This document shows, one piece after another, positions 10,451-59,205 of a stretch of DNA of 64,000 nt. This DNA comes from a virus: the IMG/VR virus record IMGVR_UViG_3300018080_005419. One strand, 5' to 3'. A program made the position numbers and the translations under genes. Each line of letters opens with the position of its first letter. Positions within the stretch are counted from its first letter, which is position 1. The notes under the pieces are model-generated. The model made no database searches and was not told where the DNA came from. It was given only the letters and a program-made list of their open reading frames with translations.

Positions 10451-10852
10451 TTGTCAATTATGTTTAGGATACTTGTTGGTTTTATTCTTATTTTGAGTTA
10501 TTCTGGCAATATTAATAATGATAAAAAGCCATATTATGTTGAGGTAAGGGCAACAGCATATTGTCCTTGTGAAAAATGTTGTGGAAAATTTGCAGACGGT
10601 ACAACATCAACAGGTAGAGACGCTTATTTACCAGGAATAGCAGTAGATCCAAAGAAAATACCCTTAGGAAGCCATGTGGATATTCCAGGATACAAAAGAG
10701 GCCCAAATAAAAATGGTTCTTGGATTTTATGTGACGATGTAGGTGGAAAAATTAAAGACTGGCATATAGATGTTCGATTTAAAACACATCAAGAAGCTTT
10801 AAACTGGGGTGTAAAAAGGGTTAAGATTCGAGTGCATCCTAAAGCAAACTAG
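10451..10852 (+). CDS. 3D (Asp-Asp-Asp) domain cell-wall-binding/lytic transglycosylase-like protein
   Basis: ATAYCPC..TSTG..IAVDP..IPLGS..DDVGG.IK..HIDV; N-terminal hydrophobic signal. Confidence 0.88.
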   Translation: MSIMFRILVGFILILSYSGNINNDKKPYYVEVRATAYCPCEKCCGKFADGTTSTGRDAYLPGIAVDPKKIPLGSHVDIPGYKRGPNKNGSWILCDDVGGKIKDWHIDVRFKTHQEALNWGVKRVKIRVHPKAN

Positions 10853-40433: not shown

Positions 40434-40467
40434 AAAAAAATCCTCCTCCTATTAAAAGAAAGAGGAC
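40434..40467 (-). terminator. Probable terminator after the 40493 gene
   Basis: TCCTCT/GGAGGA stem followed by T7 on the minus strand. Confidence 0.45.
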
Positions 40468-42857: not shown

Positions 42858-43370
42858 TTATTCTTTATCATTTCTATGTTTGAAATGATAAAGTTCTTGT
42901 TTATATTCTGATGTTGCTTCTGCTATTTTTGCTTTCTTTCTAAGCAAATGTTCGTACATTGCATAATCAACTTGCTTAGGATATTTTTTACTCATCCATT
43001 TTTCATAAGCAATCCACTTTTTTGCTACTTCTTTTGTCATTTCAAATTTGCCAGCATATTTCCCATACATAGCCACACCAATATTTTCATATATTTGGAT
43101 ACGCCTGTTCTTTTCCACATAATCCCAATATCCCAATCCAGACATTTTAAGCTCGGGAGAAGGACCCCACAACTTATTCCATCCCCTTCGCATATACACT
43201 CGATTTGGAATACCATCTTTGCCCTTAACTAAAACAACATCATTAGACTGTGTTGTCCGATTATAAGAATAAAGACCAACCGCTTCTATCCCATACCAAG
43301 TACCAGTTACTTGAGACGAAGAACAGCCAGTCAATACTAAACACATAAAAATTAACATAAGCTTTTTCAT
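42858..43370 (-). CDS. Predicted lipoprotein
   Basis: MKKLMLIFMCLVLTGC lipobox. Confidence 0.7.
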   Translation of the reverse strand: MKKLMLIFMCLVLTGCSSSQVTGTWYGIEAVGLYSYNRTTQSNDVVLVKGKDGIPNRVYMRRGWNKLWGPSPELKMSGLGYWDYVEKNRRIQIYENIGVAMYGKYAGKFEMTKEVAKKWIAYEKWMSKKYPKQVDYAMYEHLLRKKAKIAEATSEYKQELYHFKHRNDKE

Positions 43371-43426
43371 TTTATTCTCCTTTTCTTTTTGTTAAAGACT
43401 TCTATTGATTGCGAAAATTATTTAAT

Positions 43427-44122
43427 TTATTTGCAATTTTCAATTTTGCTATAAATAATATCCAATTGTCCCTCCATCACTTTATCTAATTTATATATCG
43501 CCTTTTTAACTCTTTCATCTTTGACTCTATTTTCTATAAAATTATATGTCCTAATCTTTTCCGCTCTTCCAGATTTTCCAATTTGTTTTTGACGATTAGA
43601 TTTTCGACTATTCTTTTCAGTATCTATTTGTTTTTCTTGTACTCTTGCTTTTAATAATTCCAAAGCCTTTATTTTATTTAAACTTTGTGATCTTCCCCTA
43701 GTACAAACCGCTATTGTTTTAGTTGGTAAATGCTTAACTCTGACTCCTGTATCTGATGTATTCCTATGTTGTCCTCCTGGACCTTGACCTCGGATAAAAT
43801 CAACTTCAACATCATTCATATTAAAATTTTCTTGAGTTTTATTAATAGGAAGGACAGCAACGGTAATTGTAGATGTATGCCGACGACCTTTTGATTCAGT
43901 AGGTGGTACTCTTTGAAGACGATGAATGCCAGACTCGTATTTCACAAGTCTTTCAATATCGCCATCAATTTCGCAAATTATTTCAGAATCAGATACATCA
44001 AGGAGGGAGAGTTTGATTTGTTCTTGTTTGCAATACTTATCATACATCCTTAACATTTCAAGGATAAATTGTTTTGCATCATCTCCACCAACACCTGCGC
44101 GAATTTCAAGAATAGCTCTCAT
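43427..44122 (-). CDS. prfA: Peptide chain release factor 1-like protein lacking N-terminal domain 1
   Basis: ESGIHRLQRVPPTE (PxT), GPGGQ, RSQ..NK..AL..L, EKIRTYNF; ATG at 44122 after GGAG. Confidence 0.85.
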   Translation of the reverse strand: MRAILEIRAGVGGDDAKQFILEMLRMYDKYCKQEQIKLSLLDVSDSEIICEIDGDIERLVKYESGIHRLQRVPPTESKGRRHTSTITVAVLPINKTQENFNMNDVEVDFIRGQGPGGQHRNTSDTGVRVKHLPTKTIAVCTRGRSQSLNKIKALELLKARVQEKQIDTEKNSRKSNRQKQIGKSGRAEKIRTYNFIENRVKDERVKKAIYKLDKVMEGQLDIIYSKIENCK

Positions 44123-44225
44123 TTGAGAATCTCCTTTCGAAAGACAATATTTCACTACGACAAAACTAAATTTAGATAGTTTTGCTAATAGCAGTCAGTC
44201 ATCGAAAGGAGAAATTTAGCCACTT

Positions 44226-44708
44226 TCAAGATCCTTCTTTTTTCTTAAGTTTTCTGGCACCTTCAACTAATGTTTCTTCTAATGCTACATCTATTCCCAA
44301 TTTTAATTTTATCTTTCCTGGCACATTATCATTTTGTATTGCAAAATCTCTAAATGTACTCCTATCAGAAATCAAGCATTCTTCTGGATCATAATCTAAT
44401 ACTCTTAAAATTTTATCTATATATTCTTTGTATGCTTCTACTTTTTCCTGACAAGCCATCTTTATATCTTCTATTTTTGGTGTTTCCCAGAAGAATCCAT
44501 ATTCGCCATGTTCAACAACTATTTCATGACACATATTAACGGGAATGCCTAAAATTTCTCCTAAACCTCGAAACTTGCATAACAAAGAGGACTCATCCCA
44601 CGGTCCTTCTTCCCATGACTTTCTAGGACGTTCTTTATAGATATATGCTATATTTCCCGTAGGAGTCTTTTCATTTCTAATCCAAATTTTTATTTTTTCT
44701 TTTTCCAT
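44226..44708 (-). CDS. Hypothetical protein
   Basis: 160-aa ORF between tRNA-Thr and the release factor. Confidence 0.7.
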   Translation of the reverse strand: MEKEKIKIWIRNEKTPTGNIAYIYKERPRKSWEEGPWDESSLLCKFRGLGEILGIPVNMCHEIVVEHGEYGFFWETPKIEDIKMACQEKVEAYKEYIDKILRVLDYDPEECLISDRSTFRDFAIQNDNVPGKIKLKLGIDVALEETLVEGARKLKKKEGS

Positions 44709-44728
44709 TTTGTTTCTCTTTTAAATTT

Positions 44729-45015
44729 TGGAGCCACCGGAGGGAATCGAACCCCCAACCTGCGGTTTCTCCCATTTTCGACTTTCATCGACATCAAAAA
44801 GATGCTTATGGGATGGACTTTCCCTTCACCATATCATTTTACTGACTTAGGTGGGCCGTGTCAAGTCTCTACACTCGCATTTCTGCTAGCTCGGGATTGC
44901 CATCAGCATTATCTGTTAAGGTTTCCCCGATTTAGCGGCCTCCACCATATATATTTCTATATATGGGTGCAATTTTACTTACAAAACCGCTGCTCTACCG
45001 TTGAGCTACAGTGGC
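44729..45015 (-). tRNA. tRNA-Thr(UGU) interrupted by a group I intron (exons 45015-44981 and 44768-44729)
   Basis: Joined exons give GCCACTG/CGGTGGC acceptor, GCGGT-TTTGTAA-ACCGC anticodon arm, TTCGATT T-loop, encoded CCA. Confidence 0.9.
44769..44980 (-). ncRNA. Group I self-splicing intron, 212 nt, IC3-like, no ORF
   Basis: Inserted after U36, ends in G; P AAATCGGGGAA, Q AATCCCGAGC, R GTAGAGACTTGA, S AAGGGAAAGTCC; P7 GAGACT/AGTCC; P3 GGCCG/CGGCC. Confidence 0.88.
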
Positions 45016-45034
45016 GTTTTCCCCTTTATTTTAC

Positions 45035-45422
45035 GAGAAGTTTTACAAAAGAAAGCCCACTACTTTAGTTGTGGGATGAATTTTGTCTACTTTCCTCTTG
45101 ACAACGATCATAATTCCTCTTATAGTAACACATAAGTTCTTTGAAAACCTGGGTATATGGTTGCCTACAATTAAAGCCTTTGTAGGTGTAAAACCCTAAA
45201 ACGGGTACAAAGTGAGTTTATATAAGATAAACTTAAAAGAATTCATGACGGGTAAAATCGCAGCTTTCTTTCTAAATTTAAACATTCTTATATACCTCAA
45301 AAACCAAATTTTATGCAGAAGGGGCATCTTCTGTTGGTTTAGATACTGTAAGACTATTCCTTCGGATAGCTAGTATCGCTTAAGCCAGAATCCCACGATC
45401 TTTAGTCGTGGGAGTATGTCAA
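45035..45422 (+). mobile_element. Non-autonomous IS200/IS605 (IS608-like) element with a tnpB 3'-end/omegaRNA relic
   Basis: TTAC target, AAAG guide plus hairpin CCCACTACTTTAGTTGTGGG at left; GAAT plus CCCACGATCTTTAGTCGTGGG plus AGTATGTCAA at right; relic frame KFYAEGASSVGLDTVRL. Left cut could instead follow TTAC at 45043-45046. Confidence 0.85.
45098..45126 (+). promoter_or_regulatory. Sigma70-type promoter inside the IS relic
   Basis: TTGACA-17 bp-TATAGT. Confidence 0.75.
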
Positions 45423-45514
45423 GAAGTCTGATTACAAAGCCACATAATAAGCGCGTAACCAATAGTGGCCATTAACAAAAGAGTGACAAACAAAAATCCA
45501 ATTGCTTTTTTCAT
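45419..45514 (-). CDS. Small membrane peptide (31 aa)
   Basis: AGGAG RBS; MKKAIGFLFVTLLLMATIGYALIMWLCNQTS; stop supplied by the IS right end. Confidence 0.55.
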   Translation of the reverse strand: MKKAIGFLFVTLLLMATIGYALIMWLCNQTS

Positions 45515-45699
45515 TTTATATAACTCCTAGAAATCAAATATAAATATCAACATTCTCGCCTAATCCCTTTTCTTTTGTTCCTTCTATCTTATATTTTCCA
45601 ACTGGTTTATCTTTCACAATATCACCAAATTTTTGATTTTGGGAATACTTATATAAATGAAATTTCCTAACTATTGAGTTTGATTGAATGTTCATTATT

Positions 45700-46047
45700 T
45701 TATTTTGCCATTAATGATCGAATTTCCCAGGTACGAACATAAGCCTCAGCACATCTCCTTGCCAAAGTTGGATCTACATTCCTTTTATAAAGATATAAGA
45801 ATACTGCTGCTGCTCTTCTTGCTTTTCTTTCTAAATTAGGAGAAGCAAAGTCTGTAAATCGAATATGTTTATCTTCCCATATCATCATCCAGTGGTTGTT
45901 CATTTCTCCATTTTTAATTATATCAAATTTAACTTCTACATCTTCTTCTTGTAAAAATTGTTCTATTAATCTTTCATCAAATTTATCATCCATACAATCC
46001 TTGGCAAATTGAAAATCATCGCTTTTACCAAAAAAACGTTTCGTCAA
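45700..46047 (-). CDS. Hypothetical protein
   Basis: 115-aa ORF. Confidence 0.65.
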   Translation of the reverse strand: MTKRFFGKSDDFQFAKDCMDDKFDERLIEQFLQEEDVEVKFDIIKNGEMNNHWMMIWEDKHIRFTDFASPNLERKARRAAAVFLYLYKRNVDPTLARRCAEAYVRTWEIRSLMAK

Positions 46048-46081
46048 TCTAATTAATGCTACAAAAAATTCTTTAATTATT

Positions 46082-46519
46082 TTAGTTTCCCCTTAACTGT
46101 AATTTGCACATCCAATATTTAACGAAACTTTCAGTGACCGAATCCATACCTGTTGTTGCAAAATTATTTATTCGTGGAACCAAAACCAATTGAATTCCTA
46201 ATTGCTTGCACGTCTCAGATTCTATACAAGATTCTCCATATTCTTCACCGTTACAATGTATATCCGGGTGTATTCTCTTTAAAAAATCGATTGGTGTTGA
46301 CTCATTAAATATAAAAACCTCATCAATAAACCCTAGCGACATCAATGCTTTCTTTCTTGTTTCTTCATCGTAAAATGGATCTCTTTTATTCTCTTTTATA
46401 TAAGAATCACTATTAATACCAACCTTTAAAACATCACCCTGAGCGCGACAAAACCCAAGGAAAAATAAATGACCTGGATGAATACCGTCAAAACAACCAT
46501 TACAAGTCACAATAATCAT
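46082..46519 (-). CDS. Cytidylyl/adenylyltransferase (RfaE domain II/TagD-like)
   Basis: NGCFDGIHPGH (HxGH), VGINSD, L..LGFIDEV.IF.E.TP. Confidence 0.85.
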   Translation of the reverse strand: MIIVTCNGCFDGIHPGHLFFLGFCRAQGDVLKVGINSDSYIKENKRDPFYDEETRKKALMSLGFIDEVFIFNESTPIDFLKRIHPDIHCNGEEYGESCIESETCKQLGIQLVLVPRINNFATTGMDSVTESFVKYWMCKLQLRGN

Positions 46520-46533
46520 TTTAAATTCTCATT

Positions 46534-46974
46534 TTATACACTGGAACTACTTGAACTACTAACAACGAAATAGTTTGCCAATGTCAACTTTGCAGTCATT
46601 TCATTTGTATGAGTTTGTGAATTTATTGTTGTTACTTCAAATTTAGCATCAATAACGGAAACAGGTACAATAGGAACACTTGGCAATGTAGTCGAATCAT
46701 GAACATAATGCACAATATCTGTATCTGTAGCACCATTTAAAGCACTCATAAAATTCGTATAATTTATATTTGTCTCTCCTGTTCCCAATGCAAAAAATAC
46801 AAAATAAGTACTAGTTGTATCTCCTGCTGTCGTACTAAGAATTTGTTTGTAAGATCCATAATCCTGAACAGATAAAATTGATCCTGTGCCATAATCATAA
46901 ACAATCTCAAAATTTGCAGGACTTATGGTTTCTCCTACATCCATAATATCTTTAAGTTCTGCTACCGTAAGCAT
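46534..46974 (-). CDS. Thr/Ser-rich hypothetical protein (possible virion protein)
   Basis: AAGGAG RBS; 21 Thr in 146 aa; poly-Ser tail. Confidence 0.65.
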   Translation of the reverse strand: MLTVAELKDIMDVGETISPANFEIVYDYGTGSILSVQDYGSYKQILSTTAGDTTSTYFVFFALGTGETNINYTNFMSALNGATDTDIVHYVHDSTTLPSVPIVPVSVIDAKFEVTTINSQTHTNEMTAKLTLANYFVVSSSSSSSV

Positions 46975-47049
46975 GAGCCAATCTCCTTTTACGTTTTAAA
47001 TACTTGCTTATATTATATCTTGATAAATAGAAGATTACTCAAAATTCCA

Positions 47050-47251
47050 ATAAAAAACCACCGAGTTTCAGCCCGGTGGTGAAGTCCGTAAGTCTAATGC
47101 TATCACCACCTAAGCTCATTTTTATTGAGCTTTGTCGTTGTAGTTCTTATGGTTGTGGTGATTACGCTAAAGTTCATGTTTTCTCACAATTCTTATCACT
47201 TTCTAAAAACAGACTAAAAATCAATATAAATCATAAAACAAACAAAGTCAA
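47050..47251 (-). promoter_or_regulatory. Threonine-type transcription attenuator (promoter, leader, antiterminator, terminator)
   Basis: TTGACT(47251-47246)-17-TATATT; seg1 ATCACCAC, seg2 GGTGGTGA, seg3 TCACCACC; terminator CCACCGGG-CTGAAA-CTCGGTGG-T6. Confidence 0.88.
47103..47177 (-). CDS. Thr-rich leader peptide MNFSVITTTIRTTTTKLNKNELRW
   Basis: 7 Thr codons in 9 positions using all four Thr codons; ThrL-like; directly precedes the terminator. Confidence 0.85.
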   Translation of the reverse strand: MNFSVITTTIRTTTTKLNKNELRW

Positions 47252-47265
47252 GTTCTTTTTAATTA

Positions 47266-47529
47266 TTAAACATCCATATACTCCTTTAACAAACGAAAAA
47301 CTCTGTATGTATTATATCCAACTATCGTAGCCTTTTGATGTATTTCTTTAGCCTTCTCTTTAAAACCATGTGCTGCTAATATGCTAGCTGCTTTAACAAT
47401 CATAGCATATCCGTCTATATCTTTTTCTGGATCTAGTTTCATCTTGGGTTTCATCGTATTACCTAATTTAAATAACTCTGGCAACCAAATTGCAAGTATA
47501 CTATTGAAATAACGCAAATCAAGTGGCAA
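47266..47529 (-). CDS. Hypothetical protein (start uncertain, possibly MKPKMK)
   Basis: ORF track; plausible composition. Confidence 0.5.
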   Translation of the reverse strand: MPLDLRYFNSILAIWLPELFKLGNTMKPKMKLDPEKDIDGYAMIVKAASILAAHGFKEKAKEIHQKATIVGYNTYRVFRLLKEYMDV

Positions 47530-47632
47530 ATTGTAAACTAATGATAATAATCACCCCATAGTATATCAATAATCACTTAAAACAATAAACAAAATATTTC
47601 TCTTTCTATTTTGGGGTAAAGGGGTGACAACA

Positions 47633-48892
47633 ATGTATAAACAACGGGGTTCTGCTCTAATAATAACAATGATTATGTTTATGATAGCAACAGGAATAAT
47701 AACAGCATTATATATAGTAGTTTTGACAGCAAGTAAAAACAGTCAAATTCAATCTCAGTATTTAGAAGCATTAGAAAAATCACAAATAGGATTAAACATA
47801 ACATTTAGAAAAATTAAAATGACACCACTGAAATACAATAGTAGTTATGAATTAATGTGTTTTGTAGAGCAGGACCCCGACACAATAGGAAATATAAAAA
47901 CAATTGATAATAGCAATGTGGGCTATAAAGTACAAGTTCGCTCAGCATATCTAGCACATACATTAGGAGCAGTTGAAGAAACATATTTAAAAGAAATACA
48001 ATATGAAGTTAGAAATGATCCTATCAATCCAATTTTTGACTATTATGAAATCAGGGCAAAATCGAAAGGAGTTGGAGAACATGACTTTCAAAGAGGCGTT
48101 ATCTGCTTTGCTGAAATCCGCAAATCTGATGCAGCCATCCCCAGTGCGCTTTATATTGATAATGACCCTAATCCTGTTTGGAATGGGGCTTCTTGGCGTG
48201 TTAGCGGTAAAGATCATTCAATGGCTCCGACAAGTGGAGGTGGAGGAATCATGGAAGAAGATGATTACCTCGTCTTCTCCGATAAGCATAAGCCAGCAGT
48301 TGGATACGATGGAGAATATTCTGCTTTGGGATTTACCTCATCAGAAGAAGATCAAATCTCTACCTTTAACGAAAGTGGAACAGAAGTCACAGGAGAACAG
48401 GCATTTGTCAATACAAATATCGACCTACGAAAACTCGCCTGTAAATTCATCGGAGGAGAACCAACAGACCCATTAAAACCAGATTATAGCAGAGTTGACA
48501 ATACTACTATGTCTTCATCTGGTCTTGGAGATATTGATGATTTTAGAGTTACATATATTGGTGGAGATGCTGGAACTGTTGCCGGAAAAATAACAGGAGG
48601 TGGAGTTTTAGTAATCGATGGAAGTGTTAGTATTGTAGGACAATTAACGTGGTATGGATTGGTTATTGTTTTGGGCGATATGAATATGAGCGGTGGAGGG
48701 GCAGGAATTCACGTTTTTGGATCTATTATGGTTGAATCAGAATCGGTAGTTTCGGGACAAGCAGATATTTGGTATAGCGAAGAAGCATTGCAAAAATTAA
48801 TGAAAGATTGTGAACCTATTATGATGGTCGATGTGATTCCTATGGCTTATCAATTAATAGAAAAAGGTGATGATAAGATGGAAGATTTATAG
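47633..48892 (+). CDS. PilX-like N-terminal pseudopilin-domain protein
   Basis: QRGSALIITMIMFMI..; C-terminal GGGVLVIDG..GLVIVLGD..FGSIMV; start ATG 47633 (or GTG 47624). Confidence 0.75.
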   Translation: MYKQRGSALIITMIMFMIATGIITALYIVVLTASKNSQIQSQYLEALEKSQIGLNITFRKIKMTPLKYNSSYELMCFVEQDPDTIGNIKTIDNSNVGYKVQVRSAYLAHTLGAVEETYLKEIQYEVRNDPINPIFDYYEIRAKSKGVGEHDFQRGVICFAEIRKSDAAIPSALYIDNDPNPVWNGASWRVSGKDHSMAPTSGGGGIMEEDDYLVFSDKHKPAVGYDGEYSALGFTSSEEDQISTFNESGTEVTGEQAFVNTNIDLRKLACKFIGGEPTDPLKPDYSRVDNTTMSSSGLGDIDDFRVTYIGGDAGTVAGKITGGGVLVIDGSVSIVGQLTWYGLVIVLGDMNMSGGGAGIHVFGSIMVESESVVSGQADIWYSEEALQKLMKDCEPIMMVDVIPMAYQLIEKGDDKMEDL

Positions 48893-57257: not shown

Positions 57258-57380
57258 TGGCGGAGAGGACAGGAATTGAACCTGCACATCCGGATCCTAT
57301 AAGATTTAAAAGGAACCATTTTTGCCGGAAAGCGAATGGTAGATCAATTCCGGCGCTCTAACCATTTAAGCTACCTCTCC
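57258..57380 (-). tRNA. tRNA of undetermined isotype with a 47-nt insertion in the anticodon loop
   Basis: GGAGAGG/CCTCTCC acceptor, G73-CCA, D and T arms normal; CCGGA/TCCGG stem closes a 54-nt loop. Confidence 0.75.
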
Positions 57381-58991: not shown

Positions 58992-59205
58992 AAAAAAAGC
59001 CAACCGTTTTTCGGCTGGCGTTCGAGGGTTTTCTGTTTTTGCGTTTCTTTAGTTTACAGAACCTCCTCGTTCGCCAGCTAGCCACAGGGCTGCTGCCATA
59101 ATATCGGCAAAGGGCAAATAAAGTCGGTTCTCTTTATGATTCACGGTTCTTTCTCCAAATAAAAGTATCAAAGCTATTTCTACCACTTATAGACAACAAA
59201 GTCAA
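58992..59205 (-). promoter_or_regulatory. Multi-codon transcription attenuator heading the tRNA array
   Basis: TTGACT(59205-59200)-17-TAGAAA; terminator GCCAGCCG-AAAAA-CGGTTGGC-T7; antiterminator GCTGGCG.AA.CGAGG/CCTCG.AA.CGCCAGC overlapping the terminator 5' arm. Confidence 0.85.
59049..59144 (-). CDS. Leader peptide MNHKENRLYLPFADIMAAALWLAGERGGSVN (GTG start)
   Basis: GGAG RBS 9 nt upstream; codons 8-23 match the downstream tRNA anticodons. Confidence 0.8.
   Translation of the reverse strand: MNHKENRLYLPFADIMAAALWLAGERGGSVN

Follow-up and report, generated by a model that had tools for sequence, protein, structure and literature searches.

A probable threonine-codon leader-peptide attenuator ahead of a tRNA-Thr operon in a large phage

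Introduction

The locus described here raises the question of whether a phage can place a tRNA-Thr gene under the control of a switch that reads threonine codons. Leader-peptide attenuation is a textbook mechanism of amino-acid biosynthesis and of a few bacterial synthetase genes. In Enterobacteria, thrL is a short open reading frame (ORF) packed with Thr (and Ile) codons, and transcription reads through when Thr-tRNA is short. In E. coli, a leader-peptide attenuator also precedes pheST, which encodes an aminoacyl-tRNA synthetase. A limited literature search found no report of a leader-peptide attenuator in a phage or ahead of tRNA genes.

The region of interest lies in a 64-kb stretch of DNA, hereafter the window, which is part of a 280-kb contig from a sediment-sample metagenome. 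The window has a G+C content of 32.5%, nearly all of its genes share one strand, and strong PHROG matches are found for many of its ORFs, features that together identify it as DNA of a large phage. An ORF of 422 codons on the opposite strand (47624-48892, plus) has a hydrophobic, pseudopilin-like N-terminus and is without a PHROG match; 56 of the 59 long ORFs around it are on the minus strand. The original prediction, made from the sequence alone, read one intergenic region of the window as a Thr attenuator, and its individual claims are taken up below together with the results that bear on them. Features are on the minus strand of the window unless stated otherwise.

Results

Elements of the putative switch

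The gap of 291 nt between the end of an 87-aa ORF (47266) and the start of a 146-aa ORF (46974) holds the putative switch. In the direction of transcription it contains a promoter (P1), a leader ORF whose UGA stop lies within the box AGGTGGTGA, the complementary sequence TCACCACC, a hairpin, and a run of six T residues (T6). P1 (47223..47251) is of the sigma-70 type with a hexamer score of 10/12. Its TTGACT (47251-47246) and TATATT (47228-47223) are separated by a 17-nt spacer, and an A/T-rich tract lies upstream. The leader ORF (47103..47177) comprises 24 codons followed by TGA. Seven codons specify Thr, ACC ACA ACC .. ACT ACA ACG ACA, so that all four kinds are present and ACA occurs three times. 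These codons form the proposed stalling site, codons 7-15 (47133..47159), where ACN is found at seven of nine positions. The promoter hexamers and the leader with all four kinds of Thr codon were thus found just as the original prediction had described them.

Throughout the phage, Thr accounts for 4.6% of codons, and ACA for 50% of the Thr codons of the window genes. As in known leader-peptide attenuators, the leader is a short translatable ORF enriched in a single amino acid, with Thr at 7 of 24 codons versus 4.6% phage-wide. The leader run is the single occurrence of six or more ACN codons within nine in the six frames of the window, and such stretches are rare in the short ORFs of 740 kb of other DNA. 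The Shine-Dalgarno match of the leader is weak in the window and in its nearest relative, though the sequence is conserved, and we infer that the leader is translated. The Thr run is located 10-18 codons ahead of the leader stop; a ribosome stalled on it would therefore leave the antiterminator strand described next unoccupied.

Alternative RNA structures

Three segments of the leader RNA can engage in alternative pairing, each where the original prediction had placed it. Segment 1 (47155..47162) lies inside the Thr codons and pairs with segment 2 to form a protector helix. Segment 2 (47102..47117) is the 5' strand of the antiterminator and includes the leader TGA (47105-47103), itself enclosed by the AGGTGGTGA box (47111-47103). 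Segment 3 (47070..47083) serves both as the 3' strand of the antiterminator and as the 5' arm of the terminator, and its sequence TCACCACC (47082-47075) is complementary to AGGTGGTGA. The intrinsic terminator (47051..47080) consists of a hairpin (47080-47057) with a 9-bp stem and a 6-nt loop, followed by T6. It follows the leader ORF and precedes the first structural gene.

RNA folding of the alternatives indicated that the 1:2, 2:3 and 3:4 helices are all able to form and that the default is 1:2 together with 3:4, which is the minimum-free-energy fold of the leader RNA (z = -3.65 versus shuffles). The antiterminator 2:3 has an energy of about -19 kcal/mol (-18 to -19.4) versus -15 kcal/mol for the terminator, and its duplex energy is better than that of 1000/1000 dinucleotide shuffles of the upstream 57 nt. 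The window contains three strict intrinsic terminators. The upstream complement of the attenuator terminator scores z = -7.0, whereas that of the ordinary terminator at 40467 scores z = -0.4. The antiterminator and the terminator are mutually exclusive, and the antiterminator is so placed that a ribosome finishing the ORF would block it and one stalled in the Thr run would not.

Conservation in the nearest relative

The closest homologue of the 146-aa protein, 59% identical to it, is encoded on an 833-bp contig (L003). This contig retains the P1 hexamers (with a diverged spacer), the start region, the stop-codon box, T6 and a TATAAT box. Its leader ORF has 25 codons, eight of them Thr, and its terminator arm carries an A-to-G change that retains pairing as G.U. 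Seven Thr-Thr codon pairs can be compared between the window and L003. Changes are found at 0/14 of their first and second positions and at 5/7 of their third positions (Fisher p = 0.001 for the position bias). The confinement of the Thr-codon changes to third positions argues for selection on the translated Thr codon and not on an RNA motif.

The default fold of the L003 leader is the antiterminator (-22 to -25 kcal/mol), and the terminator folds only once the region of the stop codon is blocked, as a ribosome would do. The 1:2 helix is weak or absent in L003, so the protector helix is not a conserved part of the switch. L003 shows no clear conservation of the small hairpin that separates the Thr run from segment 2.

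A family of nine loci

The first gene after the switch (46534..46974) encodes the 146-aa protein, which ends in a C-terminal poly-Ser tail and defines the locus family. Profile searches of 1.84 billion representatives and of a 5.8-billion set yielded about fifteen members of the poly-Ser family, which are about 145-156 aa long and carry tails of 6-11 Ser, a feature invariant across 24-59% identity. The poly-Ser gene (P0002-P0009, P0070-P0079) is always first after the attenuator, and its product has no known domain. The 146-aa protein has no Pfam or PHROG matches, its AlphaFold model is poor (pLDDT 39), and its ESM Atlas matches are viral hypothetical proteins only. With 21 Thr it has the highest Thr content of any ORF in the window; an explanation of the leader by a Thr-rich first gene was dropped since the homologues of the protein are not Thr-rich.

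Nine distinct loci, all from metagenomes, were compared: the window, L003, L006, L007, L010, L104, L109 (the same as L110 and L111), L112 and L113. The poly-Ser protein gene is the only protein-level match between the relatives' loci and the window. At all nine, an ORF of 24-41 codons and a strong terminator precede the poly-Ser gene, so that a terminator between leader ORF and first structural gene is found at 9/9 loci. Wherever the contig extends far enough, a promoter with TTGAC(T/A) and a spacer of 16-17 nt is present as well; TTGAC(T/A), 16-17 nt and TAnnnT are equally placed in L006, L007, L104, L109, L112 and L113, and ahead of a second leader of the window at 59205. The seven loci more distant than L003 share this architecture with different leader sequences. 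Positions 1-34 of a further contig, L005, are apparent sequencing-adapter sequence and not phage DNA.

The pairing is retained throughout the family. At 9/9 loci the terminator 5' arm pairs best with the sequence containing the leader stop codon, which is a UGA within a GGUGA/AGUGA box at seven loci and a UAA directly after the box at two, and the distance from leader stop to terminator arm is 22-30 nt. The terminator sequences vary among the loci and the stop-codon stretches vary along with them. MAFFT alignment of five attenuator cores left the stop codons out of register; formal pair counting was therefore dropped, and a comparison of cognate with permuted duplexes was used in its place. 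The summed duplex energy was -134.8 kcal/mol for the cognate pairs versus -98.0 +/- 8.6 kcal/mol for the permuted ones (p = 0.00035). This co-variation of the stop region with the terminator arm supports a functional antiterminator, as judged from the sequences.

Thr is enriched in the leaders of the family, at 44/275 residues (16%) versus a background of 4.7% (p = 1.6e-12), and at 29/228 when the two run-type leaders are left out (p = 1.3e-6); because the nine loci have a common ancestry, neither the enrichment nor the synteny counts are fully independent, and the p-values overstate their independence. In the nine leaders no residue but Thr is enriched, Asn, His, Gln, Lys and Pro included, and A/C-rich RNA alone therefore does not explain the Thr content. 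Furthermore, ACA makes up more than half of the leader Thr codons, whereas a pairing motif would favour ACC. In every leader, Thr codons lie at least 6-7 codons ahead of the stop, where a stall would leave the antiterminator strand free. At 7/9 loci the Thr codons are scattered (8-18%) and form no run, so that specificity for Thr is clear only for the window and L003.

Three leaders contain a block R-T-W-D-x-V-A-F-D (L006 ~730-845, L104 ~10660-10775 and L109 ~370-480). Its conservation extends to third codon positions, and the L104 copy makes up the 3' arm of a long hairpin, so that the block may represent an RNA element embedded in the leader and not a motif of the peptide.

Several searches bear on the distribution of the switch. 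Neither a near-identity DNA search nor tblastn with the 146-aa protein matched anything in a phage collection, and IMG/VR scans with the 146-aa protein, the Thr-run DNA and the structure pattern were likewise without a match. The single match of the IMG/VR scans with P0003 and P0004 (L107/L108) proved false. The antiterminator-terminator pattern matched metagenome contigs twice, both times as coding-sequence false positives, and in prokaryote genomes it gave 92 coding-sequence false positives, a Thr-rich short ORF being present in 0 of them.

Genes downstream of the switch

A tRNA-Thr(UGU) gene lies 2 kb downstream of the switch in the window (44729..45015), with five ORFs and a repeat-flanked insert in between. 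The gene is split into exons at 45015-44981 and 44768-44729 by a 212-nt insert (44980-44769) after anticodon position 36, and it is missed by ARAGORN and Rfam because of this split. In silico removal of 44980-44769 restores a canonical 75-nt tRNA-Thr(UGU) cloverleaf. The tRNA gene that the original prediction had placed about 2 kb from the attenuator is thus real, and it is not intact. The 212-nt insert has a U ahead of it and a G as its last nucleotide, as expected of a group I intron; no Rfam intron model matches it at E values up to 10. Between the tRNA gene and an ORF for a 31-aa membrane peptide (45514-45419), two alike imperfect hairpins (CCCAC..GTGGG with an ACTAAAG loop) surround about 340 nt free of ORFs, and this stretch (45035-45422) looks like a small inserted element.

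In 6/7 loci with downstream sequence, counts that are likewise not fully independent, the first same-strand tRNA genes past the poly-Ser gene are tRNA-Thr genes; those of the relatives were called by ARAGORN and confirmed by Rfam. The window has the split UGU gene, L006 has GGU and UGU, L010 has CGU 10 nt after the poly-Ser gene followed by UGU and GGU, L109/L110 has GGU and UGU, L112 has UGU, and L113 has GGU with the contig end next. The UGU tRNA-Thr is therefore found in five of the six tRNA-Thr loci. In L004, ARAGORN and Rfam detected no tRNA in the 1.3 kb downstream.

A short RF1-like gene occurs in three loci, the window, L109/L110 and L112, always directly after tRNA-Thr, with tRNA-Val(UAC) next in the relatives. 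In the window (43427..44122) it encodes 231 aa without domain 1; the PPT and GGQ motifs are present, Pfam identifies PCRF and RF-1, and the match to phrog_19918 begins at profile position 107. The orthologues in L109 (2065-2790) and L112 (4133-4819), 53% and 59% identical to the protein of the window and 228-241 aa long, likewise begin at domain 2. We infer that the RF1-like protein acts in rescue. The predicted link from attenuator to tRNA-Thr and RF1-like genes accordingly holds across relatives, with tRNA-Thr in 6/7 loci and RF1-like orthologues in L109/L110 and L112.

A cytidylyltransferase-like gene (46082..46519), similar to heptose-1-phosphate adenylyltransferase (Pfam PF01467, phrog_7878), lies outside the conserved module, and its own relatives have no shared neighbourhood. 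Among the eight downstream ORFs, Pfam and PHROG searches revealed no Thr-pathway enzyme and no ThrRS. The original account of the downstream genes is borne out in these respects, namely a Thr-rich protein (21/146), a nucleotidyltransferase, an RF1-like gene and neither Thr biosynthesis nor ThrRS. From 47270 to 43400 no second terminator besides that of the attenuator was found, relaxed criteria included, and by the same criteria none separates the attenuator from the tRNA-Thr and RF1-like genes in the relatives. The genes may be co-transcribed from P1.

Two further features of the window concern tRNA genes. At 57261-57380 Rfam identifies a 120-nt tRNA (55 bits), absent from the ARAGORN calls, that presumably carries an insert in its anticodon region. 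At 58992-59205 there is a second promoter-leader-antiterminator-terminator element with the same -35 box, TTGACTTTGTT. Its ORF has 31 codons and a GTG AAT start, as in the leaders of L104, L109 and L113; a TTGGAATT box follows its terminator, as one follows that of the main attenuator, and the element lies 22 nt ahead of the tRNA-Ile of a tRNA array. This suggests that gating of tRNA genes by leader ORFs is a habit of this phage group.

A probable second promoter behind the terminator

A probable second promoter, P2, lies behind the terminator at the GATATAATA box (47011..47019), 43 nt ahead of the first gene. Its TATAAT is conserved in L003, and similar post-terminator boxes are found in L010, L109 and L112, at distances of 15-45 nt behind the terminator. 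The 9-mer GATATAATA occurs in the window eight times on the coding strand (11027, 40405, 47011, 47310, 53538, 57409, 60817 and 63977) and once on the other (33494, plus). It is also found after the ordinary terminator at 40467, again 43 nt from a start codon. Several of the occurrences are about 43 nt upstream of start codons, and a -35 box is not clear. We take GATATAATA as a candidate class of promoter. It is thus very probable that a second promoter, independent of the switch, also serves the operon and that the attenuator gates only transcription from P1; most of the operon's transcription may bypass the switch. The caveat of the original prediction, that a motif near 47007-47020 may be an internal promoter that bypasses the attenuator, is strengthened by the conserved TATAAT and the 8:1 strand bias of GATATAATA.

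Discussion

Proposed mechanism

The arrangement is best read as a ribosome-mediated (leader-peptide) transcription attenuator tuned to Thr codons and feeding a tRNA-Thr operon, an assignment drawn from sequence comparison that we consider probable, with room for doubt. The designation as a Thr attenuator in the original prediction gains support from the conservation in L003 and from the shared architecture and co-variation in seven distant loci. In the proposed mechanism, host RNA polymerase would start at P1 and produce a leader of about 165 nt, of which a ribosome would translate the 24-codon ORF. When Thr-tRNA is plentiful, the ribosome would reach the UGA and cover the 5' strand of the antiterminator; the terminator hairpin would then form and the transcript would end near 47052. 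When charged tRNA-Thr is short, the ribosome would stall within the Thr run, no less than 27 nt upstream of the antiterminator strand. The free strand would pair with the terminator 5' arm (about -19 vs -15 kcal/mol) and the polymerase would read through into an operon encoding the poly-Ser-tailed protein, small ORFs, tRNA-Thr(UGU) and the short RF1-like factor. The predicted response is thus from Thr-tRNA shortage to read-through, and because the output includes the tRNA whose shortage is sensed, the switch would exert negative feedback on tRNA-Thr supply. P2, behind the terminator, would provide transcription independent of the switch, probably at another stage of infection.

Alternative explanations

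The locus might be a real leader-ORF attenuator that reports general translation capacity, with the Thr run as an embellishment specific to the lineage of the window and L003. The leaders of L006, L007 and L112, which have 2-3 Thr codons and no run, fit this explanation, as does the conservation of the architecture while leader sequences diverge. General translation-stress uORFs are known (PMC12121999), and ermC is named in PMC2965389. However, Thr is the sole enriched residue even without the run-type leaders, the tRNA of the operon is tRNA-Thr (6/7 loci) and not a random tRNA, and the identity of the Thr codons is under selection between the window and L003. We regard an attenuator of general capacity as rather unlikely on these grounds. 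Somewhat less likely still is a self-contained unit in which P1, leader and terminator yield a small RNA or micropeptide acting in trans, the operon being transcribed from P2 only and the pairing being non-regulatory. The TATAAT conserved after the terminator in most loci and the strand bias of GATATAATA agree with such a unit, and trans-acting attenuator-derived RNAs and leader peptides are documented (PMC6614838, PMC7298713). It leaves unexplained the co-variation of stop region and terminator arm and the constant 22-30-nt spacing, and the peptide sequence is unconserved across the family but for its Thr content; moreover, a role in trans is compatible with attenuation.

The most conservative interpretation, an ordinary intergenic region in which the terminator of an upstream unit and the promoter of the next flank a chance short ORF, draws on the frequency of promoter-like hexamers at 32.5% G+C (45 found vs 36 expected). 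We consider it highly improbable, given that L003 keeps the ORF with its Thr codons, stop position and pairing, that the architecture recurs in nine loci and that the Thr run is unique in the window. The 24-59% protein identity excludes that the relatives are assembly copies.

Relation to known attenuators

The Thr-based attenuator proposed here resembles thrL (Rfam Thr_leader, RF00506) in its Thr-packed short ORF, alternative hairpins and intrinsic terminator. It has no sequence similarity to thrL, and in place of thrABC its operon contains tRNA-Thr, a gene resembling release factors and genes for uncharacterized proteins; its stop lies inside the antiterminator strand, and a second promoter lies behind its terminator. 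Rfam Thr_leader gave no match at E values up to 10 in 47030-47265 or 43000-47400, and none at the gathering score in the window or eight related loci. Nor is the locus a recognizable T-box riboswitch, no Rfam cis-regulatory family being near threshold. The 1:2 / 2:3 / 3:4 logic is that of trpL, the E. coli trp attenuator, all three helices being possible in the window; it differs from trpL in a 1:2 helix that the nearest relative does not keep, in its use of Thr codons for regulation and in its non-biosynthetic targets. The nearest functional analogues are the leaders of pheST and hisS, in which a codon-run leader controls a translation gene for the same amino acid. Whereas these govern the cell's charging enzyme, the phage switch would control genes that include the tRNA itself, and would do so in a virus. 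The His leader precedes hisS paralogues in bacilli (PMC2965389).

A possible role in counter-defence

Phage tRNAs counter tRNA-cleaving immune systems such as PARIS/AriB (PMC11464382, PMC12409363; PMC10264068). The tRNA-Thr(UGU) of E. coli is a prime target of AriB, ribosomes stall at ACA when it is lost, and the tRNA-Thr(UGU) encoded by T5 helps in rescue from AriB (PMC12409363). The phages that counter PARIS and the phage described here have in common a phage-encoded tRNA-Thr(UGU), and ACA is the commonest Thr codon of the leaders; the PARIS studies describe no sensor regulation of such phage tRNAs. It is conceivable, and in our view doubtful, that the module is an inducible counter-defence in which cleavage of tRNA-Thr(UGU) by host immune nucleases would stall ribosomes on the ACA/ACN codons of the leader and thereby switch on phage tRNA-Thr genes whose anticodon stems differ, along with the short RF1-like protein, which would release the stalled ribosomes. 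The anticodon stems of the module's phage tRNA-Thr(UGU) are varied and the E. coli cleavage-site sequence occurs in none of them, which is a lead only and not evidence. If the counter-defence reading were true, the virus would encode both a sensor for tRNA loss and, coupled to it, the remedy.

Significance

The conserved module has four parts, the attenuator, the poly-Ser-tailed protein, tRNA-Thr and the short RF1-like gene, and two of its proteins are without known function. With the element at 59205-58992 as a second example, leader-peptide attenuators may gate tRNA genes more broadly in this phage group. If the reading as a Thr-tuned attenuator holds, these phages would gauge the decoding capacity for one codon family during infection and adjust their tRNA output to it. 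This bears on the old question of whether phage tRNAs serve codon supply or escape from tRNA-cleaving defences.
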